The translations under genes and the position numbers were made by a program. Below, piece after piece: positions 1-36,721 of a DNA stretch of 64,000 nt. The notes under the pieces are model-generated. The model was not told the DNA's origin. It was given only the letters and a program-made list of their open reading frames with translations, and made no database searches. Location of the stretch: UHGV virus genome UHGV-1351408; one strand, 5' to 3'. Numbering within the stretch: the first letter of the stretch is position 1; each line of letters starts with the position of its first letter. The stretch comes from a virus.

Positions 1-2
1 CG

Positions 3-191
3 GAAGGTCCATTCGTTATGTTCCTGATACAGAAATTCGCCCACGTAGTTGAAGCGGTCGTTTTAGATGTAAGTCCGGTACAATGGGAAGATATAGAGCA
101 GCAACGCAAGGAAGGACACGAGGTTTGTTTGGCGATTTTATTGCGCCGCACATATCCGTCGTGCGCATTGGAAGCGTGTATGGTGTGGTAA
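3..191 (+). CDS. 3' end of an unknown gene that starts upstream of the window (partial)
   Basis: Open frame 3 from the window edge to TAA at 189-191; looks GC-richer than the bulk of the window; not in the ORF track. Confidence 0.25.
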   Translation, partial: EGPFVMFLIQKFAHVVEAVVLDVSPVQWEDIEQQRKEGHEVCLAILLRRTYPSCALEACMVW

Positions 192-274
192 GATGTCAGA
201 AATGCGCTGGCGCGAATGGCGATGGATAGCGCCGAGTTACATTTCTGGATTTTATCGTGGGAAATAAATAGTTT

Positions 275-320
275 ACCCCTAGACCACACGGTCTAGGGGT
301 AACTTTACTTTTTATTTTTT
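275..320. terminator. Bidirectional intrinsic terminator between convergent genes
   Basis: Perfect inverted repeat ACCCCTAGACC-ACAC-GGTCTAGGGGT (275-300) followed by a T-run (301-320); sits between the plus-strand ORF ending at 191 and the minus-strand ORF ending at 312. Confidence 0.6.
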
Positions 321-1067
321 GTTTGCCTTAAGCGCTTTTAAGCGTTCGGCAGTAACGTTCAGGCATTCGATTAACTCGTTAACCTGTTTCATGAACAGAC
401 CAAACAGCTCCACCCAATCGGATGCAAAATCTAACATCATCGTCAGTTCTTTCGCTACATTCGGATGAATGTTTTGTTCGGACAAGATTTCTGACGTGGT
501 GCGAATGGACTCGATTGACTTGTCGATGTTCGTCCGTAAACGTTTCGTAATTTCAACGTTCAGTGCCTTAGCACGATTGAACGCAACGTCAATCTCAGAC
601 GCGCTGTGGTACGTCTTCTCAATTGGTCGCTGGTCAATAACGTTATTAGTGTACGATTTCGCTAATAAGTTAACCAGGTCTTTCGGGTTAACATTACGTA
701 ACGGTAAATTAACGTTTTTGTAACGGAAACCAATCGGTAATGACAGTACCCCCACATCATGTGTAAGGGCCGAAAGTTGTTTATCGACCGGTAGCAGAAT
801 ACCCGTATAGATGTTTTGTAGTGAACTCCATACAGATTCTAAGCGGTTCAAGTGATCCATCACGTAGGTATTAAACCCAGGTGGAACGATAACCAACATT
901 CCCGCAAAGTGTAGGAATTTTTCTTGTTGCATCCACTTGGAAACGTCCGACATCTCGTCATAAGTGGTTAATGCAATCTCTTGTTGAGGGCCACTAAACC
1001 CTTTCGGTAAGATTGCAGACGCTTTAGCGGCGAAGCTAGATAACGCTGCAAGTGGATTTACATTCAT
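312..1067 (-). CDS. Hypothetical protein (251 aa)
   Basis: Long ORF with ATG start; no motif recognised; codon usage looks GC-richer than the rest of the window. Confidence 0.55.
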   Translation of the reverse strand: MNVNPLAALSSFAAKASAILPKGFSGPQQEIALTTYDEMSDVSKWMQQEKFLHFAGMLVIVPPGFNTYVMDHLNRLESVWSSLQNIYTGILLPVDKQLSALTHDVGVLSLPIGFRYKNVNLPLRNVNPKDLVNLLAKSYTNNVIDQRPIEKTYHSASEIDVAFNRAKALNVEITKRLRTNIDKSIESIRTTSEILSEQNIHPNVAKELTMMLDFASDWVELFGLFMKQVNELIECLNVTAERLKALKANKK

Positions 1068-1165
1068 TCTAAAACCTCGGATTATAAGTCAGGGTTACAT
1101 AGTAAAGTCTTTTTACAGTTCACCCAAACCTTATGACCGAGACTCTTCCATAAAGGTAAAGCTCG

Positions 1166-1465
1166 ATGAAAATCAAATTACTGACTCGAAACACCACACC
1201 GCGTTTAGAACCGGAAATTTATCTGACCCCTGTTAAAAAAGGTCAGAACGGTAAACCTATTCAAGTTGGAAAAGTCTTGAGCGTAACGTCGTGCCCGAGC
1301 GGTAAACGTGTTATGGAACTGGAAATTGACGAGCGTAATAAACGCCGTTTCGAGTCTATTGAAAACCCTTATCCTGAAAATGCGGAAGAAGTTACTGAGT
1401 GGGTAGAGACCTACTTTGAATTCTGGCACAACCGCCGTCTTCTTCTTCCGACCAAGAATCGTTAA
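1166..1465 (+). CDS. Hypothetical protein (99 aa)
   Basis: ATG preceded by AAGGTAAAG; divergent to 312..1067. Confidence 0.45.
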   Translation: MKIKLLTRNTTPRLEPEIYLTPVKKGQNGKPIQVGKVLSVTSCPSGKRVMELEIDERNKRRFESIENPYPENAEEVTEWVETYFEFWHNRRLLLPTKNR

Positions 1466-1502
1466 TTATCGGAGCGCTAAATGGCAGGCCCAACTAAGCA
1501 AG

Positions 1503-1712
1503 TTATCGGTGAAGTAATTCGTCCACGTTTTTTACACCTTTAAAAAGGTTGTTTGAACTGCGTTTTAAAGTTAACTGCTTATCAACCTTCACGCCCCACC
1601 TTACAGCAGATTGTTTCCCGTTGTCAATCACTTTCCCGCATAACTTTTTAGCCATGTTGCGAGCGTCATCACGAGTCTTTGTAGTAATTACAACGTTTTT
1701 GATAATAGCCAT
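1503..1712 (-). CDS. Hypothetical small protein (69 aa)
   Basis: Track ORF 1503..1727 begins at a TTG; the first ATG is at 1712, with GGAGA 8 nt upstream. Confidence 0.4.
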   Translation of the reverse strand: MAIIKNVVITTKTRDDARNMAKKLCGKVIDNGKQSAVRWGVKVDKQLTLKRSSNNLFKGVKNVDELLHR

Positions 1713-1798
1713 TTTTAAGTTCTCCAATTTAGGATTGAGTGGTAAAGCTCTTTATCTGGGGCTTACTTTATCGAACTATAAGCCCCTTGTAAAGTACT

Positions 1799-2182
1799 TT
1801 ATTTGTTAATTTTGAAGATAGTTACATAACCATCGCTGCCGATGATTTGTGATGCTCCAGCTTTTTCTACTTGATAGCCCATATTTTCAAGATGATAAAC
1901 AGCATCATCATAACCATATGCGCCGCCTTGATAACGTCTCTTATCACATCTTACTAATACCTTTCCACGTCCAGCAAGTGCATTTAGTACAGCTTTTTCA
2001 CTTGAAAGTGTACCATCTAACATGGTTGCCGTGTAATGGTTGATTCTATTCCCGTTTACATCATACTTAAAATTGAATGCGTGAACAACGATAATGTTAC
2101 CTTTAAAATTTTCATCAAGTGACTTCTCCAGTGCGTTGCGAAAGTTGTCTTTGTTGATGAATTTAGGTGCACGGTATTTCAT
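1799..2182 (-). CDS. Hypothetical protein (127 aa)
   Basis: ATG start with GGAGA 8 nt upstream; no motif recognised. Confidence 0.55.
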   Translation of the reverse strand: MKYRAPKFINKDNFRNALEKSLDENFKGNIIVVHAFNFKYDVNGNRINHYTATMLDGTLSSEKAVLNALAGRGKVLVRCDKRRYQGGAYGYDDAVYHLENMGYQVEKAGASQIIGSDGYVTIFKINK

Positions 2183-2436
2183 TTTTGAATCTCCAGTTTA
2201 GGACTTTATTTAGTGGGGAAGGTTATTCCCTCCCCGTTGATGCAAATACTAGGTAACCACGTTCAAAGAGTCAAGAAAAATTTTAAAAATATTTTTAGCA
2301 AAACTGTAATGAAACGGGCGCACACGACTACCACAAAACAGAACTATAATCAAGAATTATTTTTCAATCCGCTACAAATTTTTCTGTTGACTTTTATTTC
2401 CAGATGTGGTAGCCTTGTGAGAAATGGCGACATCCC

Positions 2437-2655
2437 CACCTGCACCCACCTACCTGCACAATTCTAAAATGATTTTTCTTGCCCGACCTGAGCGGGGTCT
2501 GCACGTTTTGAAAATGAAAAAGCTCTTTGGAGATTACCTGCACAGTTTGAAAATGAATTTTCTCTTTGGAGTTCAAAATTTTCTCTACAGATTTCTGTCC
2601 AGAACTCTACCTGCACAATCCTGAAATGAAAAAGCCCTCCTTACCTGAAAATTTA
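2437..2655. repeat. Direct-repeat (iteron-like) array in a 520-bp intergenic region
   Basis: Copies of TACCTGCACA-N-TTTGAAAATGA at 2451-2472, 2498-2523, 2534-2557, 2607-2635 and a partial at 2641-2654; two ~34-bp near-tandem units (2499-2532, 2538-2571) also share CTCTTTGGAG. Confidence 0.6.
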
Positions 2656-2701
2656 CCAGATAAGAAAGGCTTAACCTATTGTGAATATTCTACAGAGTTT
2701 C

Positions 2702-3487
2702 TTAGTTCTTTGCGTCTAAGAAGGTTACTTCCGGTGAAGAGAAAATTTCCTCAACATCCTCATCAGTTCTTGCATAGATATATGTATCTGCATCACTGCC
2801 AAATGTTACTGCAATTCTGTGATTGCTCTTCGACAGGTGGGTAACTAGAGCGTTACTTAGAGACATCTTTTCAACCGGAGGGTTACTTTGATGTATCTTG
2901 CCTTTTCTTCGTCTGAAGAGGGTAACTGTATCATCAGTGAACACTACTACACCTGCAAAGTATTCTGGTTCACAGTAGTTCTTCCAACCTGAGCGTAACT
3001 TGTGGTACATCTCACCTTCGTAGACATACAGATACACATCTACATTCTTCATCACCTGATTAATGATAACAGTGACGGCTTGAGGGTCTAGTCCACCGAT
3101 ACCTGCACCAATCATAGGTAACCCAACTTTCTTCAACTGATTGACTTCACAGTATCTGTTAAGCTGTTTCAAAGATGACTCTAAAGCACTGTATCGGGCA
3201 TCTTTACCAGTCTTAAGCTGGGTGTAAAGGTTAGCTATACATCCTTGTCTTAAACGTGCTACAGAGAAATTGCCTAGTAAATTCTCACAGGGCTTGTGGC
3301 CTATGCCACCTGCATACAGATAAACTTCTGTATCAGTCTCGTATGCTTTTGGGTAAAATTTAGAAATCTTGTCAGCGATACCTGCACCCATTAAGTTCAT
3401 ACAGTTGCAACCGTGACCGATGACATCAAACTTACCTTTATCAAATGCTGCAAAGATATCACCGTTGATGATTTTTACAATACCCAT
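2702..3487 (-). CDS. Macro-domain-like (ADP-ribose binding/processing) protein with a ~90-aa C-terminal extension
   Basis: N-terminal pattern GDIF..DVIGHGCNCMNLMGAGIADKI aligns by eye with the macro-domain GDIT..DAIVNAAN..GGGVA region, and a second glycine-rich loop GLPMIGAGIGGLD follows; GGAGA RBS; ATG overlaps the upstream stop (TAAATG). Confidence 0.5.
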   Translation of the reverse strand: MGIVKIINGDIFAAFDKGKFDVIGHGCNCMNLMGAGIADKISKFYPKAYETDTEVYLYAGGIGHKPCENLLGNFSVARLRQGCIANLYTQLKTGKDARYSALESSLKQLNRYCEVNQLKKVGLPMIGAGIGGLDPQAVTVIINQVMKNVDVYLYVYEGEMYHKLRSGWKNYCEPEYFAGVVVFTDDTVTLFRRRKGKIHQSNPPVEKMSLSNALVTHLSKSNHRIAVTFGSDADTYIYARTDEDVEEIFSSPEVTFLDAKN

Positions 3488-3724
3488 TTAACATCTCTCC
3501 CAAGTTTCTTTATCTTCTGAAGGTTTTACACGTTGCCCTTCGTGGTCTACCCAGATACATCCACAACCTTCACAGATTACTGGCATTGCATAGCCAGCTT
3601 TAAAGTCGTCTTCAGTGATAAGACCTTTTAAGTCACCTGTATCACGTCCAAACATTTCAATAGAACAATCTTTGCAGAAATCAGCCATGAATAATTGCCT
3701 CTTGAATGATGATACCTTTACCAC
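3488..3724 (-). CDS. Small cysteine-rich (zinc-ribbon-like) protein
   Basis: 78 aa with CKDC ... CEGCGC cysteine pairs. Confidence 0.45.
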   Translation of the reverse strand: MVKVSSFKRQLFMADFCKDCSIEMFGRDTGDLKGLITEDDFKAGYAMPVICEGCGCIWVDHEGQRVKPSEDKETWERC

Positions 3725-3908
3725 AACGACTTTTAAAGTGTTCTAATGGTTCAGAGATGAAGCCACGTAAACAGTCAGTGAATACTAAGTTCTTCCGGTA
3801 AGCTATCACATCATTTGCTGTAAATGGTATGACCTCATTTCGTCCAATGAACACCGCTGACCTGATAAGTCTCCGTGTCTTTTTATCTCTGGCTAGTATT
3901 ACTTTCAT
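3681..3908 (-). CDS. Hypothetical protein (75 aa)
   Basis: ORF in an operon-like minus-strand array; overlaps neighbours by a few codons. Confidence 0.35.
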   Translation of the reverse strand: MKVILARDKKTRRLIRSAVFIGRNEVIPFTANDVIAYRKNLVFTDCLRGFISEPLEHFKSRCGKGIIIQEAIIHG

Positions 3909-4248
3909 AGTTTACCTTCTCAGTTAGCTCATACAAATCAACATGTTCAATGCTATCAATGTTGATACCAATCTTTTTGAAGCGTTCTATCACTTCGTTG
4001 TCAGTCATCCATATCAGACACCAATGATTGTGGATGGATTCTTCAAGGAGGTCAACACAATCTTTAAAAGTTTTTGTATCACTTCTTGTTCCGACTACTG
4101 CGATTGTTCCATATAGCCACTTACCATTGCCATAAGATACTTGTGCTACGCCAACTTCTTTATCTTTCTCATAGTAAACGGCTACAAAGTCTCTTCCATT
4201 AATCTGCATTTGTAAGTTCCTCTGTTGGTAACTCACCATTTTCAGCAA
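3883..4248 (-). CDS. Hypothetical protein (121 aa)
   Basis: ORF in a tightly packed minus-strand array. Confidence 0.45.
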   Translation of the reverse strand: MLKMVSYQQRNLQMQINGRDFVAVYYEKDKEVGVAQVSYGNGKWLYGTIAVVGTRSDTKTFKDCVDLLEESIHNHWCLIWMTDNEVIERFKKIGINIDSIEHVDLYELTEKVNYESNTSQR

Positions 4249-4513
4249 AGTATTGAAGGTACGGCAACAACTCTTTTACCTGTTCTTGATTGAGCTTCAT
4301 TCTTTGATTACCTACAAAATCTTTACCTACTAATGCTGGGATATCAAGTGTTTTCCAGCCATTATCTAGGTACTGAACAGAGACCTCTTTAGCACCTAAC
4401 CATATACATGGTTCATATGATGAACTCTCTTGTAAAGTACAAATTTCCCCTTTAGCATCTTTAAATTCTGCATAAGAAAATCCACGATTTGTTGGCTGGA
4501 ATTGCATAATCAT
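4199..4513 (-). CDS. Hypothetical protein (104 aa)
   Basis: ORF in a tightly packed minus-strand array. Confidence 0.45.
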   Translation of the reverse strand: MIMQFQPTNRGFSYAEFKDAKGEICTLQESSSYEPCIWLGAKEVSVQYLDNGWKTLDIPALVGKDFVGNQRMKLNQEQVKELLPYLQYFAENGELPTEELTNAD

Positions 4514-4779
4514 TTCCTCGTTTTAAGAACTGCTAAGATTTCTTTAGAATCTGGTAAGAACCATGTGTAGTGATTCTCTTTGATTTCTGGATGAGTGTCA
4601 ACCTTTATTTTGCAATCTTTACCAACATGCTTAAGCTGTGCTGTGACACCTTGCATAAAAATATGACACATCACATTATCCATAATGGTAGGTATGAAGT
4701 CAATTCGCATATAAGTTTCTTTTGGTCGTGGTAACAGTAAGTATCCTTCTACGTAAAAAGTATCTTCATTCTCTGTCAT
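4510..4779 (-). CDS. Hypothetical protein (89 aa)
   Basis: ORF; its stop overlaps the next start. Confidence 0.45.
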   Translation of the reverse strand: MTENEDTFYVEGYLLLPRPKETYMRIDFIPTIMDNVMCHIFMQGVTAQLKHVGKDCKIKVDTHPEIKENHYTWFLPDSKEILAVLKTRK

Positions 4780-5045
4780 TGCTGTTTATTTCCTAATAAA
4801 ATCATATCAATAAGGTTATTAGCTTTGATTGTACACTGGTAGAATTCATCACGATAAAACTCAAGGGCTGCTGCCACATCACTACCGGTATTACCTTTGA
4901 TAGTGAATCTTGAATCTTCTTGAGTGTACTTGTCACTCTCACTTACTTGGGAGTTTTTGAATGTACTGCTCACTTTGTTCGTTGAACACCCTGACATAAT
5001 TATCAGTAACACAAACATTATAAAACTCTGGCTTAGTTTTTTCAT
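4776..5045 (-). CDS. Putative outer-membrane lipoprotein, o-spanin-like (Rz1-like)
   Basis: Signal peptide ending in the lipobox IMSGC; own RBS AGAGGT; starts inside the preceding ORF in the +1 frame (overlapped architecture). Confidence 0.45.
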   Translation of the reverse strand: MKKLSQSFIMFVLLIIMSGCSTNKVSSTFKNSQVSESDKYTQEDSRFTIKGNTGSDVAAALEFYRDEFYQCTIKANNLIDMILLGNKQQ

Positions 5046-5286
5046 ATGTTAGTACCTCTTTTGTATGCTTATTCTTAGCAAGCACGTCTTTCAAATCATT
5101 TTTGTAATTGGTGCTCAGTGTAACTAATCCTTCCTGATAAGCATCTTTAGCAACACTTATCAGCTTCTCATTGTTTAACTCAGCTTCAGCAACTTGGTAG
5201 TCTCTGTAAGAGTATCCTCCCCAGACACCCGCCCCAACTAAGAAAACAATTATGAAAGTAGCTTGACAGAACTCTTTAAATGTCAT
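4939..5286 (-). CDS. Putative inner-membrane i-spanin-like protein (Rz-like)
   Basis: N-terminal transmembrane helix (FIIVFLVGAGVWGGY) then a charged, helix-prone periplasmic domain; 3' end overlaps the lipoprotein ORF; GGAGA RBS. Confidence 0.45.
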   Translation of the reverse strand: MTFKEFCQATFIIVFLVGAGVWGGYSYRDYQVAEAELNNEKLISVAKDAYQEGLVTLSTNYKNDLKDVLAKNKHTKEVLTYEKTKPEFYNVCVTDNYVRVFNEQSEQYIQKLPSK

Positions 5287-5299
5287 TTAACAATCTCCT

Positions 5300-5330
5300 G
5301 AAATGAAAAAGGCTCCCGAAGGAGCCTGTA
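5300..5330 (-). terminator. Intrinsic terminator (GGCTCC-CGAA-GGAGCC hairpin)
   Basis: Hairpin 5311-5326 followed on the minus-strand transcript by UUUUUCAUUU. Confidence 0.6.
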
Positions 5331-5338
5331 TCTTAACC

Positions 5339-5803
5339 TTAACCGAGGACTTTAGCAAGGATATTCGCAGCCATCGAAGAAGCTTTTGCAGCAGCAACTA
5401 CGCCAGCTTTGACAGTGCTATCCTTAATAGCAGATACCGTTGCAGCATCAGTAAAGAGATAAGTGATTGTTTTAGAACCACTTGTAAAGGAAAGCATAAG
5501 AGTAGTTTCCAGATTGAAAGAGCGATACGGAGCACCTTCTTTAACGATACCTTCAGCACCTAACTCTGAAGCCTTACCCATATCATAGATAGTCATCAGG
5601 TTTTCTTTGTGTGCAGTCGTTGAACCAGCACCTTTTACGTGCTTTTTAACATTCAACAATGCACGATATTCACGAATGCTGCCATCAGCTTTTACATTAA
5701 CAGCACGAAAAATTTTACCTTCAAAGTTACCTTGAATCATTTTACGAACTACTTCAGATTTGTTTGCCGTAACGTCCAGTGCTACCGTGATGATATTGTT
5801 CAT
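5339..5803 (-). CDS. Hypothetical protein (154 aa)
   Basis: Track ORF begins at a TTG; first ATG at 5803 with GAGAG upstream. Confidence 0.5.
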   Translation of the reverse strand: MNNIITVALDVTANKSEVVRKMIQGNFEGKIFRAVNVKADGSIREYRALLNVKKHVKGAGSTTAHKENLMTIYDMGKASELGAEGIVKEGAPYRSFNLETTLMLSFTSGSKTITYLFTDAATVSAIKDSTVKAGVVAAAKASSMAANILAKVLG

Positions 5804-5814
5804 AAGTTTTTCTC

Positions 5815-6510
5815 TCAATGTTTAACTAACATGGTTTTAATGTGTGGAAGGATTCTGTTTACCTTCTGAACATTCTTCTCTGTATCTTCTATAAAACATA
5901 CTATATTAAAGTAAGGCAGAATGCAAGACTGAATCATCCTCACTTTCAAACTTTCTGCACTTATAGAATTATTCCCAAAACCACGCATAAAAAGCATGTA
6001 GTCATGCTCTGTGTTATGCCTTAAAAACATCTCAGTAGGTATTCTCTGAGATTCACCTCTGGCTGTCAAGAGTCCAATGGCAGCATGATTAGCAATTGCA
6101 TCAATAATATTGAAAACATACGTTGGTTTTGCTCTTACAGAGTCAAGAAGATTAGTGTACTGTGAAAATGACCCATCAATCAATTCTGTTGAGCAATCTT
6201 CGTGATTAAAATTTGTAAGAACACCATCAATATCTGCTAAGATGAGGTTACCTTTTTCTACAAGGTCTTTATTGACTATGACTAAACTGTCACGTCTTAC
6301 ACCTATAGATTGTCCAGTCTCTTTGTCCACAACGTTCACAATTGATTCTGAAGTGTGGAACTCTTCAAGTGAACATACAACTTCTCTTGCAGTATCTTCA
6401 AAATCCCTGCACTGTTCTGAAGTCCATACACAGGAATCAAGACCTAACTCATGAGGGTGCAAGTCGTAAGCATGACACAGGACTTCATCAGACTTTCTTA
6501 ATTTTTTCAT
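5815..6510 (-). CDS. HAD-superfamily hydrolase/phosphatase-like protein
   Basis: LILADIDGVLTN matches HAD motif I (DxDGxL); ATG with AGGT upstream. Confidence 0.5.
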   Translation of the reverse strand: MKKLRKSDEVLCHAYDLHPHELGLDSCVWTSEQCRDFEDTAREVVCSLEEFHTSESIVNVVDKETGQSIGVRRDSLVIVNKDLVEKGNLILADIDGVLTNFNHEDCSTELIDGSFSQYTNLLDSVRAKPTYVFNIIDAIANHAAIGLLTARGESQRIPTEMFLRHNTEHDYMLFMRGFGNNSISAESLKVRMIQSCILPYFNIVCFIEDTEKNVQKVNRILPHIKTMLVKH

Positions 6511-7036
6511 GGTTTACCTTAGAAATGTTTGTTGCAAATTCACATTGAGCAATAACTTTCATGTTGTTATAGACATCTTGAGAATATTTCTTAGCTTTAG
6601 GAATTTTGTATGAATACCCAGCATTATAAGATGCTAAAACTTTTTGTAAAGTCTTCTTTGACTTTGGCTGACCATGTACCTTTGTCCAAAACTCAAGCTC
6701 TTTATGCGTTTCTTTTGCGGCATAATCAAAATCTTTTAAAAGTTTCTTTTTAGCCACATTAGGACTAATTTTGTTACGCTTTACAACAGTCTTCAAGTGA
6801 TTCTGGAAAATACCATAGTCATGTGTCTTTTTATTCTCTACCTTCAGACCTAACTCTGACTCTTGTAAGGCTATAGCAGCTAGAGTGATACCCCAACCTT
6901 TACCCATATTATTCTCACCATACTGGTAAGCTTTTAACATGTTTACTTTTTGGCTAATTGATAGCTCTGGGCAGTCAACTGCATAAGATAAGTGTGCTGT
7001 AAACATTAAGCACAAACCTAGAATCAATTTCTTCAT
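6488..7036 (-). CDS. Secreted lytic transglycosylase (SLT-domain) protein; candidate endolysin or periplasmic muralytic enzyme
   Basis: N-terminal signal peptide MKKLILGLCLMFTAHLSYA; SLT-like catalytic region ALQESELG ... YGIFQ; strong RBS GGAGAACCA. Confidence 0.55.
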   Translation of the reverse strand: MKKLILGLCLMFTAHLSYAVDCPELSISQKVNMLKAYQYGENNMGKGWGITLAAIALQESELGLKVENKKTHDYGIFQNHLKTVVKRNKISPNVAKKKLLKDFDYAAKETHKELEFWTKVHGQPKSKKTLQKVLASYNAGYSYKIPKAKKYSQDVYNNMKVIAQCEFATNISKVNHEKIKKV

Positions 7037-7059
7037 TGGTTCTCCTGTTTAGTTTATCG

Positions 7060-7100
7060 TGACAACAATTATACAGTACTCTGCACAAAATACAAATAAA
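7060..7100 (-). promoter_or_regulatory. Putative promoter upstream of the transglycosylase gene
   Basis: TATAAT on the minus strand (plus 7069-7074) immediately preceded by TG, downstream of the rIIB terminator; -35 not clear. Confidence 0.3.
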
Positions 7101-7131
7101 AAAGGCCGCCGAAGCAGCCTTTTAAGAAATT
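7101..7131 (-). terminator. Intrinsic terminator after rIIB
   Basis: Minus-strand RNA stem GGCUGC-UUCG-GCGGCC (one G-U wobble) followed by UUUUUUAUUU. Confidence 0.6.
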
Positions 7132-7136
7132 ACTTA

Positions 7137-8246
7137 TTAGATTTCACGTTTACGTTGAGAGATGAGTTCACCAGCAGTGCCAACGATGACATGCAAAGCT
7201 TCGGCCTTACCATCCCATGCTTTCAGCACTTTACGTTGATTATCAACGATTGCTGTAACTTCATAACGAGAGGAACGCATCTTCATATCGTTGTAATCAG
7301 TTGGGACAGACACAACATCTCGTGGATGGACACGAACCTTCAGGATTGTATCGCCTGAGAAGCAACGAACATAATCCCAAGCACCAACATGAAGACCTTG
7401 AGAGCAAGTCACGTTACGGTTATTATCAACCATCCAACGTGGCATTTCTACAATGTTACCCAAATCATTAGGTACTTTGTATGTGCGGGAGTCAACCAGC
7501 TTGCCTTCATGAGTAGAGACTTTCTTCCAACCAATGATGTAACCTTCTTCATCAATTTCAACATCAAGGTGAGATACGAAGCCCCAAAGTTGTTCTACAG
7601 AGTCTTTAGATGGGTTTTCCATCAGTTTTTCGAAGAACATTACAAGTCGTTCAAAGCCTTTATCACCAGTCTTCATCATGTGAAGAATACGGTCAACCAG
7701 AGTAGAACGCATCTCAACAGCACCGTAGAATAACTTGTCACCTTTGATTGTGATAGCACCCTGAGTGAAGTTTTCGATAGACTTACGAATGTTCATCAGT
7801 TCAAAGGCTTTCTTGAACTCACCTTTCACAACATGAACTACAATCTCTTGATAGTTCGGATGAGTAGACTCAACAATTTCAGATTCTGAACCGTAAGTCA
7901 TAATTACAGAGTCACCAGTAATCATGTACTCAATCTTGTCATCTTTCTGCATAGCTTCATGCAGTTTATTTACCGGAGCTTTCTGTACAGAATCTTTAAC
8001 AACCTTTTCAACTGGCTTGTCAGCTTTCTTTTTAAAGGTCTTAGCAACTTGTTTCAAAGTCTTTGTAGCTGGTGTAGAAGTTGCCTTCTTCTTCCCTTTT
8101 AAGGTTGCTTCATGACGCTCTACAGCACGACCGACTGAACGGGTTGAAGTATTGAATTTCTGTGCAATAGCTGTTTTGGTCAGCTTACCTTCTTTAACCA
8201 GTTTGTAAATTTCTGCGTCAATCTGTGCTTTAGTTTTAGTAGTCAT
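7137..8246 (-). CDS. rIIB: rIIB-like protein
   Basis: 369-aa protein immediately downstream of the GHKL-ATPase protein, the typical rIIA-rIIB arrangement; call rests on synteny and size. Confidence 0.45.
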   Translation of the reverse strand: MTTKTKAQIDAEIYKLVKEGKLTKTAIAQKFNTSTRSVGRAVERHEATLKGKKKATSTPATKTLKQVAKTFKKKADKPVEKVVKDSVQKAPVNKLHEAMQKDDKIEYMITGDSVIMTYGSESEIVESTHPNYQEIVVHVVKGEFKKAFELMNIRKSIENFTQGAITIKGDKLFYGAVEMRSTLVDRILHMMKTGDKGFERLVMFFEKLMENPSKDSVEQLWGFVSHLDVEIDEEGYIIGWKKVSTHEGKLVDSRTYKVPNDLGNIVEMPRWMVDNNRNVTCSQGLHVGAWDYVRCFSGDTILKVRVHPRDVVSVPTDYNDMKMRSSRYEVTAIVDNQRKVLKAWDGKAEALHVIVGTAGELISQRKREI

Positions 8247-8325
8247 CTTATTACTCTCTCTTGTTAGTTAATAAATCATTTTGTGAGGTTATTCTAAGGG
8301 GCTTTGAAGCCCCTTGTCAAACATT

Positions 8326-10692
8326 TTAATCGTAAATTGTAGTCCCTTCTGGAACACACTTCACATCAAAGCCTAAGAACTTACTCACTTCGATAGGTGA
8401 CACTTTATTCCAATCTAAATGAGAAAGCAAGAAGTTTTCTTGTTTTCTTTTTGAAAGATAGTTTGTCACCTTAATAACCATACGGTCACCAGCTTTCTTA
8501 ATTTTATTGTACAGCTTTGTATCGTTGTCAAGGCATTCTTTCAAAGTTTGCAATCTACTAACAGTGTAAGTGTATGCAAACGGTGCAGCAACGTATTGGA
8601 TTTTACCAAACATTGCCTCTACAGCCTCTTCATTACCTTCTAGGAAGATAGTTTTGTTTGTATCCCGTGAATAGCAATAACCACGAGAAATCTTCCTGTT
8701 ATTGAATGTAAAGTTTCTGGCAATAATCCAGCTACTTGTAAGGTCAAGAACACCATTCATATAGATACGTGTCATATACCTGTTATGATTAATCCAATGA
8801 ACATCAGTTAAGCTGTCGTTCAAGAGCTTCTCATCTACTTCAATCCAGTCTTCTGGTATCTTTTTCCAATTTGCTTTTCGGAAAACATATACTGTCTTTC
8901 CAATGACATTGGCAACTGACTTAGCTACATCTTCTGGAGATGAGCAAAAACATTCGCCATCAACTGTGTCGCCTACTGCCTTAATATAAAGCTGAGGCTC
9001 TTCAATCGTATCTAAGTCTTCTGACACCTCTTTGTATGAAGCTACACCTTCTGCTGGAACAGCTTTCCAGAGTTTTACAACACCTCTTACAGCTTCTTTA
9101 CGCTGATAATGGTGTTCCTTATCAGACATCTTCACAATCTTTAACAAGCTTTTATCAAGTTTGTGTAGATTGATTAAGTCATCTAACTCTTTTTCAGTAG
9201 AGAATACAAAGACAATACCATTGTATCTGTGAAACAGACTTGACTCACTGGCATAGTCTCGACATGCACCACGCAAGATTTGGTTGCGTCCTACAGTCTT
9301 CTCAGTACCGTTTTTATTGCGACGGTCATTTATAACAAACAAAAACTGTTCAATTTGGCTTTTACGCATTGCGCCAAAGATATTGAACATGCTTGCCTCT
9401 TGAGTGTAGGAAAGTGCTGTTGCACGAATCTTACTCTCTAAAGAGTTGAACTTGACATAAGCAACTGGTTCATAAAGGTAATCTACTTTAGGTATGTTGT
9501 TCCCTTTGCTGTCAACCTTAATATTACCTTTACCATCACGTTCATAAATGACTGAACCGTCTTCTGCGTAGATAATTCCACGACGAATGTTTAGTAATTC
9601 TTCTTCCAGAGAATCAAGCTTAACACCACCCCACTCTAGCTTTGGACACACAGCATTAAACATCTCTCGTGAGTTCAAACGTAACTCAGCATAAGCCTGT
9701 GCAGCATCCATGAGTGTAGGTTGGTTATTAACACCCTTAATAACGTCCCTTGTGATTGCTTCAGTTATCTTTTTAGTAGCCTCGATGATAACATTTTTTG
9801 TCGTGTCATTCATCTGCAATGCTTCACGAGAAGCTGCAATAGCAACTGAACCAATAGGCATGTAGATGTTTACAAGGTCTACGCTCCTACGGAAAAATTC
9901 TGGCAAGACTTTGAAGAAATCATCGCCAAGTAACGCTTCCATGTTAACTGGATAGGCAATATTACCCATCACCACATTAAACTCTGTCCTGTTATCGCTA
10001 GAGCGCCAACTTAGCTTATGAATCATGGCATCATAAACACCCTCTTCACGAGCAATGACGTTCATATCTGCTAATACATCGTCGTACACAATATTACTTT
10101 CTGGTTTTACAGCAAAGTATGAGTATACATTACCAGCTTCTTCAAAGAACTTTGAGATACGATGGTCAGCAACTGCTACACGTACAGCTAAACCATTAGG
10201 TTCTTTTGTTGGGTTAGTGGTCAGCTTGGTTACTTGAGGGATACCATTCTCAAGATAAACAGAGTATTTATTAACAACACCATCAACGTAGCTAGATACT
10301 GTGAATGACTGAGCAATCGCAAACGGTGACTTTGAACCGATACCCATTGCACCAATGTAGTCATTAGAGTCATTCTTTGTAGAAGCCCCGTAGTTTAGGT
10401 ACAAACTCATAACTTTATCATGAGTTAATCCAGTTCCAAAATCACGAACTTCAAAGTAAGGCTCAAAACGAGTAGGTAAATGCACATGGAACGGGATGTT
10501 CTCTTTTCCAGCTTCTTTCTGAGCATCTACTGCGTTACATGACAGTTCACGAATAACTGCCCTTTCTTTAAATGTGTATACACCAGAACTCAAAAGGCTG
10601 AACATTTCAGGTGTCATTGTAATCTGTGCTTGAGACGTCTCTAAAGAAGTTGAACTCTTAATCACTTCTGCGTGGTCGTTTACCATGCGCAT
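8326..10692 (-). CDS. rIIA: rIIA-like protein with N-terminal GHKL-type ATPase domain
   Basis: GHKL motifs ELSCNAVDA (N box), VRDFGTGL (G1), GAMGIGSKSPF (G2); 788 aa; strong RBS AAGAGGAAA. Confidence 0.65.
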   Translation of the reverse strand: MRMVNDHAEVIKSSTSLETSQAQITMTPEMFSLLSSGVYTFKERAVIRELSCNAVDAQKEAGKENIPFHVHLPTRFEPYFEVRDFGTGLTHDKVMSLYLNYGASTKNDSNDYIGAMGIGSKSPFAIAQSFTVSSYVDGVVNKYSVYLENGIPQVTKLTTNPTKEPNGLAVRVAVADHRISKFFEEAGNVYSYFAVKPESNIVYDDVLADMNVIAREEGVYDAMIHKLSWRSSDNRTEFNVVMGNIAYPVNMEALLGDDFFKVLPEFFRRSVDLVNIYMPIGSVAIAASREALQMNDTTKNVIIEATKKITEAITRDVIKGVNNQPTLMDAAQAYAELRLNSREMFNAVCPKLEWGGVKLDSLEEELLNIRRGIIYAEDGSVIYERDGKGNIKVDSKGNNIPKVDYLYEPVAYVKFNSLESKIRATALSYTQEASMFNIFGAMRKSQIEQFLFVINDRRNKNGTEKTVGRNQILRGACRDYASESSLFHRYNGIVFVFSTEKELDDLINLHKLDKSLLKIVKMSDKEHHYQRKEAVRGVVKLWKAVPAEGVASYKEVSEDLDTIEEPQLYIKAVGDTVDGECFCSSPEDVAKSVANVIGKTVYVFRKANWKKIPEDWIEVDEKLLNDSLTDVHWINHNRYMTRIYMNGVLDLTSSWIIARNFTFNNRKISRGYCYSRDTNKTIFLEGNEEAVEAMFGKIQYVAAPFAYTYTVSRLQTLKECLDNDTKLYNKIKKAGDRMVIKVTNYLSKRKQENFLLSHLDWNKVSPIEVSKFLGFDVKCVPEGTTIYD

Positions 10693-10720
10693 AATACTTT
10701 CCTCTTAGTTTACTGTTAAA

Positions 10721-10897
10721 TTACTTATTAAACATTTTACCAGAACCACCACACATAGGGCAACAACCTGCTCTTGTATAACCTTCTCCATTACAGAAGT
10801 CACATTTTTTGTGCTCTGCATAGTACTTGCAAAGAAGGTAAACAAACACTGCTACACTACCAAGTGACAGTAAGATTTCTATCCAATATGCTTGCAT
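10721..10897 (-). CDS. Unlisted small membrane protein with two CxxCxGxG (DnaJ-type zinc-finger-like) motifs
   Basis: 58-aa ORF below the track cutoff: MQAYWIEILLSLGSVAVFVYLLCKYYAEHKKCDFCNGEGYTRAGCCPMCGGSGKMFNK; RBS GAGAGGTGA; hydrophobic N-terminal helix. Confidence 0.4.
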   Translation of the reverse strand: MQAYWIEILLSLGSVAVFVYLLCKYYAEHKKCDFCNGEGYTRAGCCPMCGGSGKMFNK

Positions 10898-11214
10898 GAC
10901 TCACCTCTCATATTCTTGTAAAGGATAAAGCTTCTATCATGGACGATACTTGTAGATACTGCAAAGTTACTTTCAAGCATCTGTTTGTTTGGATTGTAGA
11001 AGCTTTCTTTAAACTCGTCAAGAGCAAACTGGTGATGTTGTGGAAGACCTTTTACACAAACCTTTATTGTGATTGCTGCTGCAACCTTTCCAGTCAGTTC
11101 TTCTTTAGCTGCTACTAAAATTTTGTTGAGGAACTTATGACCATCTTCAGGCTTCTTGATGTTCTCCCAACGTTCTTCTAAGACAATGTTGATGTTCATT
11201 TCTTTGATTTTCAT
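10879..11214 (-). CDS. Hypothetical protein
   Basis: Track ORF begins at a TTG; first ATG at 11214 with GGTGA upstream. Confidence 0.45.
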   Translation of the reverse strand: MKIKEMNINIVLEERWENIKKPEDGHKFLNKILVAAKEELTGKVAAAITIKVCVKGLPQHHQFALDEFKESFYNPNKQMLESNFAVSTSIVHDRSFILYKNMRGESCKHIG

Positions 11215-11219
11215 AATTT

Positions 11220-11564
11220 TCACCAAGTCCAGTTAACGAGTATACCATCAAAACCTTTTGCTAAAGGTACACCCTCATGCTCATAAAATTCAGGATTAAC
11301 TTCGAATCCACGATTTTCAATATACTCTATCATGTATTTCATTACAAAGCTAATCTCTTCGTAGTCCTCTGGGTCTCTGCCAAAGAACTGTTCTATGACA
11401 AACATACCTTCTTTTGTAGCAAATTGGCAGTGGTGATTGTAGATACCTTCACAAAACTTTTCAAACTTTTCTTTACCGAGAACTTCAAGGATGTCTGTAT
11501 AGGCAACTTGTAAGTATTTCGGTTGTACAGGTTTCTTGTTAAACCATATGGAAAGGTTGTCCAT
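11220..11564 (-). CDS. Hypothetical protein (114 aa)
   Basis: ATG with GGAGA upstream. Confidence 0.5.
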   Translation of the reverse strand: MDNLSIWFNKKPVQPKYLQVAYTDILEVLGKEKFEKFCEGIYNHHCQFATKEGMFVIEQFFGRDPEDYEEISFVMKYMIEYIENRGFEVNPEFYEHEGVPLAKGFDGILVNWTW

Positions 11565-11582
11565 AGCATTCTCCAGAAATTA

Positions 11583-11610
11583 AAAAGGCTCCCGTAGGAG
11601 CCTCTTATCA
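11583..11610 (-). terminator. Intrinsic terminator after the NAMPT gene
   Basis: GGCUCC-UACG-GGAGCC hairpin followed by UUUUUAAUUU on the minus-strand transcript. Confidence 0.65.
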
Positions 11611-11617
11611 TATACTT

Positions 11618-13399
11618 TTAAAGCTGCTTGTCAATATTATTTCGAATATCACCAAGAGATGTGTAACCATACTGCTCAGAATCACTAAAGACTAAGCGTA
11701 GAGCACAAGCTGGATGTTCAAGTGCATCTGCAAAGCTTTTGAATCCATAGCCATCTACAGCTTTCAGTTTATCACCATCCCACATAGGTGCTACACCACC
11801 AAAAGCAGACTTCTTAACACCACTATCTGTTTTAGGGTCTTTTGCAAGCATAATCTCTTTACCACCAATGCTTGCAAGAGTTGCTTTAACAGCAAATGCA
11901 AAGGTGTCACGAGTCATGTACTGGTAAGTGTAGGAGCCTACGCCAAACACTACGTTAGAGCTTGCAAAACCCATTTCATACATACGCTTCAGGATTTCGT
12001 TTGCACGTTCCAGTGTGATAGAGTCACCATAGATAAGGCCAATGTGCTCATCCAGTACCTTAAAACCTTTGGAGTTGATAGTCCCTCCGAAGATGTTATA
12101 CAGAGTCTTAATAGCTCCATCAATCTCTGCTACAGGGCGTGTTACAACGTTTGCAGAACCAACCATATAAGCATTTTTCAACATCACTGTATCAGCAACT
12201 TCAAAATCTTCTCTGTCAACAACCATTTCGTAGCCTTCTGACAGTAGCCATCCAGCAATACCATAGCTGATGTTTTCAAGCTTCATATTCATAACAGCAT
12301 TCAACATTGTGTCGCTGGCTTCAAGCTTACTAAGGTGCTCATAATAAGCCTTTTTAGCGCACTCTAAGTGGATTGCTTTATAACCTGTGACAATATGTAC
12401 AGGGTCTCCAGAGTCAGGACGAATTACCAGTTTACCGTCACGTTCCATAATCTCTTTGCGAAGTGCTGGTAAGATTTCTGACACAGTTCTCCAGAAGTTA
12501 TAAGTATCTGAAACAACACTTGCAATACCAGTCGGGTAAGTCTCTGTTAAGAAACGACGGAAGGTCTGCAACTCACCTTTAAAGCGTCTTTCCTCTTCAA
12601 TCAATTCATTACCACCTTCCCAAGCAATGTTTGCACACATTACAGAGTGTTCAGTGGCTGGTACAGAACCACCAATATCAGAGACTTGGTAAGACTGTCC
12701 GTAGATGCGTTTAGCTGTATATACAGCAGGGAAGCTATCAGTCCCTTTAAAGCTGGTCAAGTGACCTACAGCATTAAATGCGTCATCAGTAAAGCCTGAC
12801 ATACCACGCATAGCAAAGTCATGGCACTGATAGGGTAAATGTAAGTCATTGTCACAAGTAAGGTCAGCCCACTTCTTACAGATGCGTTTGTAGTGCAATG
12901 CAATAGTTGCAATGGTACAAGCCTTCCAAATCTCAGCAGAGAAAGCATCTTCCAGATAACCTGCTACCCAATGAAAACCTGAAACAGTGTTCTGGAAGAC
13001 AATCATTGGGACACGCATAGGGACAACTGTGCCTTCTTCTACAGCGTATACTTCAACTGGCAGATAACCTAAGTCGTGAAGTGCTTCCCAATGTTCTCGA
13101 CCAATAGCATCTTTACCCAGAACACCGTTCATGACTTCTAAGATTTCGTCAATTGCTTCTTTTTTGTCACGTTCAAAGAAAGTGGCATTCCAATGGTCTA
13201 TCAAGTAATCTTTAACAAAACGTTGAATACCAAAAGCTACTACACCGTCAATTGCTAAGGGGCTGTTAAACCATTTGTCGCTACGTGGTGTCAGGTTGAA
13301 CATCAAGTACTCTGTTGCGCTAGGATACTGGTAAACATGACCAGATTTGTAAGCATCTGCATTTAAACCTGCTGGTACTGCGTAAAGTGATTTAGTCAT
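11618..13399 (-). CDS. nadV: Nicotinamide phosphoribosyltransferase (NAMPT/NadV family; Namat-like)
   Basis: 593-aa protein of NAMPT size and overall character, paired directly downstream of a Prs-like gene as in known phage NAMPT modules; no individual motif was checked. Confidence 0.8.
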   Translation of the reverse strand: MTKSLYAVPAGLNADAYKSGHVYQYPSATEYLMFNLTPRSDKWFNSPLAIDGVVAFGIQRFVKDYLIDHWNATFFERDKKEAIDEILEVMNGVLGKDAIGREHWEALHDLGYLPVEVYAVEEGTVVPMRVPMIVFQNTVSGFHWVAGYLEDAFSAEIWKACTIATIALHYKRICKKWADLTCDNDLHLPYQCHDFAMRGMSGFTDDAFNAVGHLTSFKGTDSFPAVYTAKRIYGQSYQVSDIGGSVPATEHSVMCANIAWEGGNELIEEERRFKGELQTFRRFLTETYPTGIASVVSDTYNFWRTVSEILPALRKEIMERDGKLVIRPDSGDPVHIVTGYKAIHLECAKKAYYEHLSKLEASDTMLNAVMNMKLENISYGIAGWLLSEGYEMVVDREDFEVADTVMLKNAYMVGSANVVTRPVAEIDGAIKTLYNIFGGTINSKGFKVLDEHIGLIYGDSITLERANEILKRMYEMGFASSNVVFGVGSYTYQYMTRDTFAFAVKATLASIGGKEIMLAKDPKTDSGVKKSAFGGVAPMWDGDKLKAVDGYGFKSFADALEHPACALRLVFSDSEQYGYTSLGDIRNNIDKQL

Positions 13400-13444
13400 C
13401 TTTTAGTCTCTCTCAAAATGGGGCTATGAAGCCCCTATAAAGTT

Positions 13445-15498: not shown

Positions 15499-15765
15499 TT
15501 ATTTAGCCTTCTTGTTACGTTTACGGTTACGAGCTTTCTTAGCTGCTCGTTTAATAGCTGCTGCACCAGACTGGCGGTGTGCTTGTTTCTTACCACCTTT
15601 ACCACGTCCAACGTAGATGTAAGGCTGCTGTTCAATTTGGCTTGTAAGAACCTGTGCAACCGCTGAAGCATCTACACCGACCTGCTTTCCAGCCATAGAA
15701 ACAATTGCTGCTGCTTTTGCCAGCGCCTTCAAGAATCCAGCTTTCATATTACATAAAATTCCCAT
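15499..15765 (-). CDS. Small highly basic protein, possibly nucleic-acid binding
   Basis: C-terminus KRAAKKARNRKRNKKAK; the overlapping alternate-frame ORF 15480..15671 was not taken. Confidence 0.4.
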   Translation of the reverse strand: MGILCNMKAGFLKALAKAAAIVSMAGKQVGVDASAVAQVLTSQIEQQPYIYVGRGKGGKKQAHRQSGAAAIKRAAKKARNRKRNKKAK

Positions 15766-15780
15766 TTTTAGTCTCTCTCA

Positions 15781-36086: not shown

Positions 36087-36295
36087 CACTTGCAGACGTT
36101 ATTCAGCAACTTCACGACAATTGCTATACTCCAGAGTTGATTCAGGAGATGCTTATTGTAGTGATGCCTAGTAAGTTCGTAAAAGGTTTTAATAGTGAAT
36201 CTTTAAAGTCTGCACATATCCTTATTGTTGACGGTAAGATTGCAAGAGACCGCACAGGAGTCCTTAAAGGTGAACGTATTAGTATTAACCTCTGA
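36083..36295 (+). CDS. Hypothetical early protein (70 aa)
   Basis: ATG at 36083 with GGAGA 8 nt upstream (track ORF begins at a TTG, 36068). Confidence 0.45.
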   Translation: MTLADVIQQLHDNCYTPELIQEMLIVVMPSKFVKGFNSESLKSAHILIVDGKIARDRTGVLKGERISINL

Positions 36296-36312
36296 ATATT
36301 GTGGATACCAAA

Positions 36313-36712: not shown

Positions 36713-36721
36713 GGTGAAGAT

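Follow-up and report, generated by a model that had tools for sequence, protein, structure and literature searches.

A probable chimeric contig end: jumbo-phage DNA at the start of a Felixounavirus genome

The first 1.5 kb of the 64,000-nucleotide stretch analysed here (the window) are probably a chimeric contig end produced during assembly or amplification, and not an acquired accessory island; from sequence comparison we put the probability of this reading at about 0.7. Comparison with other phage genomes strongly supports the view that positions 1–1531 are a slice of an unrelated jumbo phage, foreign to the remaining genome. The chimera reading rests on near-identity to the donor, exact donor synteny, breakpoints that lie within genes, the absence of the block from a sister genome and the crowding of errors at the extreme end.

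Composition and origin of positions 1–1531

The initial annotation had called the left end GC-richer and enriched in CG-containing codons, and the windowed GC and codon statistics that it proposed as a check do depart from the genome mean. GC content is 0.438 in 1–1531 and 0.390 in the remainder of the 64-kb window. Sub-windows of 1.5 kb have a mean GC content of 0.391 (sd 0.0165); positions 1–1500, at 0.439, lie 2.9 sd above it and rank 10th of 1251. GC reaches 0.444 near 60.4 kb, so the value at the left end is unusual, not unique. The decisive compositional signal is CpG, with a frequency of 0.068 at the left end compared with 0.0187 (z = 6.6, rank 1 of 1251) and an observed/expected ratio of 1.44 in 1–1531 versus 0.48 in 1532–64000. 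In the two complete left-end genes, 12.7% and 16.2% of the codons contain CG, against a mean of 2.7% and a maximum of 7.8% in the 64 other ORFs that are at least 100 aa long. Their GC3 is 0.48 and 0.41 (other ORFs: mean 0.325, maximum 0.433), and all 18 of their arginine codons belong to the CGN box, AGA and AGG being unused, compared with about half in the other ORFs. The composition of 1–1531 equals that of a donor-type jumbo contig, L004 (GC 0.446, CpG observed/expected 1.29). As a side observation, the CpG ratio is a far better discriminator of the two genomes than GC: it is ~0.5 in Felixounaviruses, a strong depletion, and ~1.3 in the jumbo phage. The block had been drawn to end at about 1500 or 1750; its edge is in fact sharp at 1531, and 1532–1750 is normal Felixounavirus sequence.

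Positions 1–1531 aligned over their full length, at 96.6–98.8% identity, to 20 jumbo-phage contigs from gut metagenomes (212–226 kb, genome ~224 kb), and the alignments stop exactly at 1531. The gene order of the block is that of the donor: the 3′ end of a 299-aa gene, a terminator, a 251-aa gene, a 99-aa gene and the start of a UvsX-like gene. Identical alleles of the 251-aa product occur in 416 indexed blocks of the collection, and of the 99-aa product in 467. Relative to the 20 jumbo genomes we found three private changes, all in the first 192 nt (two frameshifting T insertions and G192); simple arithmetic gives such clustering a probability of (192/1531)^3, or ~0.002, under uniform placement. 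No private substitution relative to the same genomes occurs in 193–1531, and there is no amelioration.

Asesino, SPN3US and Goslar are characterised relatives of the ~224-kb donor. The Erskinevirus and Seoulvirus loci ASESINO_236, STRATTON_237-239 and SPN3US ACQ60_gp052-050 have the same architecture and lengths as the left block, with a common layout of a 251-aa gene (−), a spacer of ~98 nt, a 99-aa gene (+), a 15-nt gap and a UvsX-like gene of ~497 aa (+). Nucleotide identity between these loci and the window is 69–72% over 305–1531, and the 251-aa proteins are 72–76% identical. The donor, an uncultured ~224-kb gut phage at 97–99% identity to the block, is distinct from Asesino, Stratton and SPN3US; its upstream genes also differ, being two ~300-aa paralogues, against 180-aa genes in SPN3US and Stratton.

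The remainder of the window is a Felixounavirus. Positions 1531–64000 are collinear with the whole genome of Felixounavirus LMP33, and 227 Felixounavirus records match the window from 1529/1563 onward. The presence or absence of the locus in relatives had been suggested as a further check, and none of these 227 records matches 1–1528. A closely related sequence, CYGL01000008.1, is 99.89% identical to window positions 1523–12173 and goes on with the intact 85-aa gene and then normal Felixounavirus early genes, with no jumbo DNA; in the gene index, the exact intact 85-aa protein has entries for CYGL01000008.1 and SRR32242779 contigs only. The 85-aa gene is an early gene, a homologue of UAB_69 gp015 (PHROG 5089). 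Over 2194–13487 the window agrees at 100% identity with independent Logan contigs from the runs ERR975218/224/225/226. The Logan contigs from these runs that carry the Felixounavirus genes we looked up end at 2194, 2575 or 1736, short of the junction, and these ends fall in or beside repeat-bearing intergenic stretches (~1736, 2194). The early region is mosaic among relatives, with indels of 280–560 nt relative to LMP33. An apparent start of phage ULIM9 had suggested a natural Felixounavirus terminus at 1530; this was ruled out, since ULIM9 has a homologous gene at 1411–1668 and its range '1..2633' came from the joining of pieces.

Genes of the left block

The features of the block and of the adjoining chimeric ORF are collected in Table 1.

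Table 1. Features identified in positions 1–1712 of the window
Feature	Positions	Strand	Basis or remark
299-aa jumbo-phage gene, last 266 nt (~88 codons)	1..266	+	PHROG 6160; alignment and translation against the intact L004 gene
Bidirectional intrinsic-terminator hairpin, 13-bp stem, 4-nt loop, T-runs on both sides	273..302		Terminator scan, both strands
Complete 251-aa gene	312..1067	−	PHROG 4682; protein 100% identical to the common allele of the ~224-kb gut jumbo phage
Divergent intergenic region of the donor locus, 98 nt	1068..1165		Equal spacing in SPN3US, Stratton and metagenome jumbo contigs
Complete 99-aa gene	1166..1465	+	PHROG 10750, E 4e-38
UvsX-like recombinase gene start, 17 codons of 498 aa	1481..1531	+	L004 gene 8091-9587; phrog_97, E 1e-55
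Junction, run of six T	1526..1531		Donor CCACGTTTT/AACG... vs Felix parent ...GTGTTTTT/ACACC
Chimeric ORF	1503..1712	−	61 native residues of the Felixounavirus 85-aa gene, then 8 residues and a stop, both from the antisense of the jumbo UvsX-like start

The partial plus-strand gene that had been reported at the left end is present, and it is further disrupted by two insertions of a single T in homopolymers, one at 49/50 and one within 136–139, so that the reading frame shifts from 2 to 3 to 1. An AcrVA2-like label (PF26125) is attached to the 299-aa gene in a precomputed index only and was not confirmed by a Pfam hmmscan (0 matches at E ≤ 0.01) or by phmmer against the PDB (0 matches). The bidirectional terminator had been recognised correctly. 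In the window, as in the donor, it separates the convergent 299-aa and 251-aa genes; its loop is inverted relative to L004 (CACA versus GTGT), and a terminator is annotated at the corresponding position in Goslar.

The divergent pair downstream also exists as described. The pair was said to have no recognisable motifs; profile searches, which had been proposed for both proteins, instead placed each in a PHROG family. A third truncated gene, the UvsX-like start, had been overlooked. The intergenic region between the divergent genes presumably contains jumbo-phage promoters; a promoter scan of the left block gave no convincing candidate, with one weak sigma-70-like match in this region and 6 sites where 4.7 were expected. 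In the donor, the UvsX-like recombinase gene follows the 99-aa gene in the same orientation after a gap of 15 nt. The 99-aa protein had a sub-threshold match to the Pfam ASCH family (E 0.034, 15.3 bits against a cutoff of 21.2), and its AF2 model (pLDDT 57) was too poor for a fold search.

The 251-aa protein matched phrog_4682 over residues 1–248 of 251 (E 2.6e-83), and Goslar gp192 (vB_EcoM_Goslar, HOV27_gp192) itself matches this family (E 3.2e-24). A profile of the 251-aa protein matched gp192 in the PDB at E 4e-5 over residues 46–245, nearly the full length, and hhalign of the two gave a probability of 85% (E 6.5e-6). The loci are also alike: RNase H lies upstream and a terminator follows the gene in both Goslar and the donor, and both genes are divergent from the UvsX-like gene and have an RNA polymerase beta fragment downstream. 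The divergent arrangement with the UvsX-like gene is the same in donor contigs, SPN3US, Stratton and Goslar. The proteins differ in that they share only ~20% identity and are 251 and 280 aa long, the 251-aa protein having the shorter N-terminus, and Goslar lacks a 99-aa gene between gp192 and gp193. The AF2 model of the 251-aa protein is all-helical (pLDDT 78) and had no significant match in a Foldseek PDB library (to 2026-04-08) that apparently lacks the Goslar entry. A phiKZ orthologue was not found among cluster names or in the phiKZ atlas paper. gp192 is a component of a capsid-internal vertex binding complex (Goslar preprint 10.64898/2026.04.21.720040; PDB 11fg/11mk, chain 'PVC protein gp192'). 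The 251-aa protein is a remote homologue and positional counterpart of gp192, possibly with a vertex-complex role. A vertex-complex protein of a jumbo capsid has no plausible role or partners in a Felixounavirus virion. In their true context the two complete genes are ordinary conserved jumbo-phage genes, one for a putative vertex-complex protein and the other a small gene that is probably transcribed with the UvsX-like gene.

These assignments bear on the earlier interpretation of the block as a recently acquired moron or accessory island, fixed in the Felixounavirus lineage and carrying defence, anti-defence or host-interaction genes. That the block is foreign has held up (0 of 227 relatives, donor-like composition, 97–99% jumbo identity). 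Its nature as an island has not: the join is intragenic and terminal, and the island reading is largely refuted and in our view hardly credible. Like phage morons, for example those of lambdoid phages, the block deviates from its carrier in composition, has its own terminator and is absent from relatives, and neighbouring donor genes bear the AcrVA2-like index label. Morons, however, sit between intact neighbours as self-contained transcription units. The block corresponds to one continuous stretch of a conserved region in another virus; its terminator and two intact genes are accompanied by two truncated donor genes. In the window, carrier sequence does not flank it on both sides between genes that are adjacent in relatives, as its right boundary is intragenic and, on the left, the window starts inside donor sequence; nor was it seen in a second related genome, among the Felixounavirus records or in IMG/VR, JGI metagenomes or GTDB. 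The cargo consists of a structural-protein homologue, related to gp192, and a small gene linked to a recombinase gene, both in the exact synteny of the donor. Neither complete gene matched a known defence or anti-defence family: PADLOC returned 0 matches for the 251-aa and 99-aa proteins, and Pfam and NCBIfam nothing significant. The AcrVA2-like gene is present only as a frameshifted stub whose label was not reproduced, and the sister genome does not carry the block.

The junction at position 1531

The switch at 1531 is abrupt, joins two segments that are near-identical to different genomes, and interrupts genes on both sides, the UvsX-like gene at codon 17 and the Felixounavirus 85-aa gene at codon 61. 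To its left, no Felixounavirus sequence is visible in the window, which starts inside donor sequence; the window thus shows a join at a terminus and does not demonstrate an insertion. The position of the join is ambiguous by 3 nt (TTT; p = 0.054 by simulation), and the first 7–8 nt of the Felixounavirus side (TTTACACC) are found a second time in the donor, 5 nt downstream (p ~ 0.0012 by simulation, post hoc). A junction 43-mer and 26-mer were not found by exact search of IMG/VR, JGI metagenomes and GTDB genomes, and neither the 69-aa nor the 74-aa version of the chimeric ORF product was found in a 15-billion-protein index. The donor's intact sequence at the same site was found in IMG/VR.

The sharp switch that cuts genes on both sides, and a junction and chimeric ORF missing from every collection searched, would also be expected of a bookkeeping artefact, in which the end of a jumbo contig and the start of a Felixounavirus contig adjoin in a concatenated multi-contig file. 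We consider this very unlikely. In our simulations such microhomology was rare in random end-to-end joins, and the three private errors lie ~1.3–1.5 kb from the supposed jumbo contig end, beside position 1, as if position 1 were itself a contig end.

The non-random appearance of the junction, with its 3-nt ambiguity and 7–8-nt recurrence, points to a homology-guided physical join and away from file concatenation or a k-mer mis-join. Such a join could have been made in vivo, by genuine and very recent illegitimate recombination in a co-infected enterobacterial cell through microhomology-mediated end joining or replication template switching, giving a packaged Felixounavirus recombinant in which at least 1.5 kb of jumbo DNA replaces part of the early-gene region. 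Relatives of both phages infect Escherichia and Salmonella, both kinds of phage are present in gut samples, and the mosaic early region described above would fit such an event. We nevertheless judge it unlikely, as the breakpoint wrecks genes on both sides and a benefit from the cargo is implausible, no amelioration or private substitution is seen in 193–1531, a 99.9%-identical Felixounavirus genome lacks the block, the junction is missing from every collection searched, private frameshift errors crowd the very end and no left Felixounavirus flank is visible. A phage nucleus should in addition limit contact between jumbo-phage DNA and the DNA of a co-infecting phage, and relatives of the donor replicate inside such a protein-shelled compartment. 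Asesino is one such relative (PMC11724907). It is rather improbable that, over the past few generations, a Felix-O1-like myovirus in a gut community took at least 1.5 kb from a jumbo phage of the nucleus-forming (Chimalliviridae-like) kind. Counting against a chimeric end, illegitimate recombination in vivo would make an identical molecule, and intact 251-aa and 99-aa genes without private mutations would also be expected of a very recent real transfer.

In the chimeric-end reading, which we prefer, a fragment of a putatively co-occurring ~224-kb gut jumbo phage would have been attached to the Felixounavirus genome in vitro or in silico, during library preparation or assembly. The sequence shared at the junction amounts to 3 nt and an 8-mer 5 nt away, much less than a de Bruijn mis-join would need; a physical chimeric molecule is therefore required. 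Template switching by a polymerase at the short T-run, during amplification of virus-particle DNA, may have produced this molecule, which would then appear as a side branch on the circular Felixounavirus assembly graph. A table entry in PMC10888812 names the assembly 'HumMal, Ma_F259_Contig_623', which would fit an MDA-amplified virome from the study of Malawian twins as the putative source. The assembler may have opened the circle at the branch and retained the low-coverage 1.5-kb jumbo 'tip' as the first bases of the contig, with window position 1 as the probable contig end. Errors clustered at the extreme end, combined with a Felixounavirus part that is 100% identical to independent contigs, fit a low-coverage tip on a high-coverage genome. 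Chimeric contigs from MDA viromes and assembly-graph tips resemble the window in joining two genomes at a few bases of microhomology, at a contig extremity and with poor tip sequence; as here, their joins are unreplicated elsewhere and a sister assembly lacks them. For the window the diagnosis is made by exclusion and pattern.

Implications

The consequence is mainly one of quality control: comparative genomics of Felixounavirus, host prediction and accessory-gene mining should use this contig only after its left 1.5 kb have been trimmed or flagged. Left untrimmed, it would credit a jumbo-phage capsid gene and an AcrVA2-like stub to a Felix-like phage. A side gain is a tentative structural annotation, via Goslar gp192, of PHROG 4682, a widespread hypothetical family of jumbo phages. 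If the junction were real, it would be a rare transfer caught in the act from a nucleus-forming jumbo phage to an unrelated lytic phage, and direct evidence for microhomology-mediated recombination between DNA protected by a phage nucleus and a co-infecting phage in the cytoplasm.

Composition and source of the left end

As the initial annotation had proposed, the left end (1–1531) differs in composition from the rest of the window. For the first 1.5 kb the GC content was 0.439, where windows of this size average 0.391 (sd 0.0165; z 2.9; rank 10 of 1251 windows), which is unusual yet not unique, because values up to 0.444 occur near 60.4 kb. CpG frequency departed further, at 0.068 versus 0.0187 (z 6.6, rank 1 of 1251), and the observed/expected (o/e) CpG ratio was 1.44 in 1–1531 and 0.48 in 1532–64000. 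Codon usage was the stronger part of the compositional claim: CG-containing codons make up 12.7% and 16.2% of the two complete left-end genes, compared with a mean of 2.7% and a maximum of 7.8% among 64 further ORFs of 100 aa or longer. GC3 was 0.48 and 0.41 versus 0.325 (maximum 0.433) in other ORFs, and arginine codons were CGN in 18 of 18 cases, with AGA and CGT in similar use elsewhere in the window.

CpG depletion is strong in Felixounavirus, with o/e ratios of 0.48 in 1532–64000 and 0.51 in the whole genome of LMP33 (MK482689.1); GpC is not depleted in the Felixounavirus part of the window (o/e ~ 0.64–1.38 in the 500-nt windows listed). The depletion appears to be genus-wide, and the jumbo-phage fragment therefore stands out against it.

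We found 227 Felixounavirus records that match the window from 1529 or 1563 onward at 90–96% identity, and none of these 227 matched 1–1528. By contrast, 20 contigs of an uncultured ~ 224-kb gut jumbo phage, hereafter the donor, aligned end to end with 1–1531 at 96.6–98.8% identity and stopped exactly at 1531. The composition of the donor (GC 0.446, CpG o/e 1.29) matches that of the left end, which is thus foreign to the rest of the genome. An exact-sequence look-up found proteins identical to the 251-aa and 99-aa products indexed in 416 and 467 collection blocks, respectively, the longest carriers being uncultured phage contigs of 212–226 kb from gut and other metagenomes. A more sensitive search aligned 305–1531 as one block of ungapped synteny, at 69–72% identity, with the jumbo phages of Erskinevirus (phiEaH2, Stratton, Asesino) and Seoulvirus (SPN3US), where the order is 251 aa (−), ~ 98-nt spacer, 99 aa (+), 15-nt gap and UvsX-like gene of ~ 497 aa (+).

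Gene content of the left end

The bidirectional terminator and the divergent gene pair of the initial annotation were both present (Table). Its partial plus-strand gene is indeed a gene end, but one belonging to a 299-aa donor gene; two extra T's relative to all 20 donor genomes shift the frame twice, hence the short ORF ending at 191 that had been called.

Features of the window (a slash marks the switch at 1531)
Feature	Position	Detail
3′ end of donor 299-aa gene	1–266	one additional T in each of two homopolymers, at 49/50 and 136–139
Donor terminator, two-way hairpin	273–302	
Intact donor genes	312–1067 (−) and 1166–1465 (+)	
First 17 codons of donor 498-aa UvsX-like recombinase gene	1481–1531	phrog_97, E 1e-55
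Junction, donor	1531	...CCACGTTTT / AACGTTTACACC...
Junction, Felixounavirus	1531	...CAGTGTTTTT / ACACCTTTAAAAAGG...
Junction, window	1531	...CCACGTTTTTTACACCTTTAAAAAGG
Intergenic cassettes	1703–1815 (~ 100 nt) and 2180–2242 (63 nt)	terminator-like hairpin, conserved upstream sequence, ribosome-binding site
Direct repeat copies	2451–2479, 2499–2571, 2608–2644	spacing 39–84 nt
Segments without LMP33 counterpart	4223–4502, 11226–11568, 15619–16022, 25720–26218, 36287–36721, 45087–45647	

At 283–292 the 4-nt terminator loop is inverted, reading ACAC/CACA in the window versus GTGT in donor contig L004, with identical stems; other donor genomes carry either orientation, seen as secondary reverse-strand matches. 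The difference amounts to a flipped loop within a perfect palindrome, arising either biologically or during assembly. In the donor, two tandem paralogous ~ 300-aa genes lie upstream of the terminator (L004 10802–12653, with equivalents in L005–L023), whereas the genes at this place in SPN3US and Stratton are different and shorter. A precomputed index tags the paralogues as PF26125 AcrVA2-like, and the gene truncated at 1–266 bears the same label. Scans against Pfam, the PDB and PADLOC lent the label no support; the sole match was PHROG 6160, which has no assigned function.

The divergent pair had been described as unknown genes. Both are members of known, though poorly annotated, jumbo-phage families: the 251-aa protein falls in PHROG 4682 (E 2.6e-83) and the 99-aa protein in PHROG 10750. 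Homologues of the former are uniformly ~ 250–290 aa, and all those that are named or lie on long contigs come from jumbo phages of roughly 240–250 kb. A profile of 25 homologues matched PDB chains of gp192 (HOV27_gp192) of Escherichia phage vB_EcoM_Goslar over residues 46–245 (E 4e-5); hhalign gave a probability of 85% (E 6.5e-6), and gp192 itself belongs to PHROG 4682 (E 3e-24). Like the 251-aa gene, gp192 follows RNase H and a terminator and diverges from a UvsX-like gene, with an RNA-polymerase beta fragment a few genes away, as in the donor. The Goslar cryo-EM preprint (10.64898/2026.04.21.720040) assigns gp192 to a 'vertex binding complex' of five proteins, located on the inside of every capsid vertex other than the portal. 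Given this homology and synteny, the 251-aa protein is probably a capsid-internal structural protein. Its AF2 model is all-helical (pLDDT 78), and no PDB neighbour of the model was found. In the PDB, chain 5 of 36za ('Tail Tube gp217') and chain Z of 11fg ('PVC Protein gp192') have the same sequence save a 32-residue N-terminal offset; in the Goslar genome it corresponds to HOV27_gp192. Because the Goslar tail tube is a different protein (10.64898/2026.04.21.720040), the former name is apparently a slip in the table or the entry.

The 99-aa protein had only a sub-threshold ASCH match in Pfam and a structure model too poor for use. Its gene is tightly coupled to and co-oriented with the UvsX-like recombinase gene, which suggests co-expression; a mediator-like role would be a guess. 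The defence or anti-defence cargo anticipated for this locus was not borne out: neither complete protein matched such a family in Pfam, PADLOC or NCBIfam. The closest characterised relatives, Asesino and Goslar, are Chimalliviridae, and Asesino is described as nucleus-forming (PMC11724907).

The Felixounavirus part

LMP33 is collinear with 1531–64000 throughout, broken only by six small indels of 280–560 nt; 1–1530 is the only segment both unmatched in LMP33 and different in composition. The six segments (CpG o/e 0.22–0.71, a Felixounavirus-like depletion) are mosaic indels of the ordinary kind, and as carriers of true small accessory genes they are more plausible than the left end. Logan contigs from runs ERR975218/224/225/226 were 100% identical to the window over 2194–13487, so this part is accurately assembled.

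The early region encodes a 261-aa Macro domain protein (2702–3487 (−); PF01661, precomputed index), recorded in exact form on four Logan contigs only, from the same four runs. Beside it, 2200–2700 holds ~ 500 nt without a convincing ORF and three to four copies of a ~ 30–35-nt direct repeat with the core TACCTGCACA.TT..AAATGA. Conservation of the stretch extends to Felixounavirus relatives, and a regulatory or origin-like role is possible; one Logan contig breaks off within it, at 2575. Cassettes of the type tabulated recur between many small early Felixounavirus genes (multiple extra BLAST hits, L030, L032, L034), and Logan contigs from several runs stop at them, at 1736 and 2194.

The junction and its origin

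The switch from donor to Felixounavirus falls within a six-T run. The Felixounavirus side starts within an 85-aa early gene, a homologue of UAB_69 gp015, giving a chimeric ORF of 61 native residues followed by 8 from donor antisense. With the UvsX-like gene also cut, the single boundary in view interrupts a gene on either side; the window starts inside donor DNA, and no Felixounavirus flank is visible to the left. The initial annotation had read the left end as a recently acquired moron or accessory island, which it resembles only in foreign composition and terminator. The boundary within genes, the missing second flank, the lack of the block in any Felixounavirus relative and the truncated genes in the cargo make a true moron very improbable.

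The Felixounavirus contig CYGL01000008.1 (GCA_001292545.1), from virtually the same strain, is 99.89% identical to 12173–1523 and continues beyond 1523 with an intact 85-aa gene and the usual early genes. At 102,764 bp it exceeds the ~ 88-kb Felixounavirus genome by ~ 15 kb, and probably contains a terminal duplication that circular or concatemeric assembly introduced. The contig shows 10 gap openings against the window in 10.7 kb, indel errors on its own side that split rIIA into three ORFs and cut the macro-domain gene to 172 aa. PMC10888812 names a sister contig 'Assembly HumMal, Ma_F259_Contig_623'.

We did not detect the junction sequence in IMG/VR, JGI metagenomes or GTDB genomes, nor the chimeric ORF product in the protein index; the intact donor sequence at this site is present in IMG/VR. 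Only three differences in the donor part are private to the window. All lie in the first 192 nt and two are the frameshifting homopolymer errors, which gives the look of a low-coverage contig tip and suggests that position 1 is a contig end.

Over 3 nt the position of the join is ambiguous (p 0.054), and the initial 7–8 nt of Felixounavirus sequence are found again in the donor, 5 nt downstream (p ~ 0.0012 from 200,000 random joins, post hoc). The shared sequence falls well short of what a k-mer mis-join requires, and simple concatenation would not give such a junction, so that two records merely joined in a file are improbable and a physical chimeric molecule made by template switching or microhomology-mediated joining is likeliest. 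Such a molecule would form a side branch on the circular Felixounavirus assembly graph, and the assembler would open the circle there. Chimeric molecules are a familiar product of multiple-displacement amplification (MDA) of virome DNA, and the ERR9752xx runs presumably stem from an MDA-amplified gut virome study. We put the probability that the left end is a chimeric artefact at about 70%; the anomaly is real, yet most probably not a property of the Felixounavirus genome.

Recent illegitimate recombination in vivo between a Felixounavirus genome and jumbo-phage DNA would yield the same junction sequence, but the near-identical contig with its intact 85-aa gene points away from a stable biological island, and we consider this origin unlikely. 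A Felixounavirus virion would have no use for the cargo. A fresh transfer of DNA, with a nucleus-forming jumbo phage as its source and a conventional phage as recipient, is likewise quite doubtful; if true, it would be a moderately interesting case.
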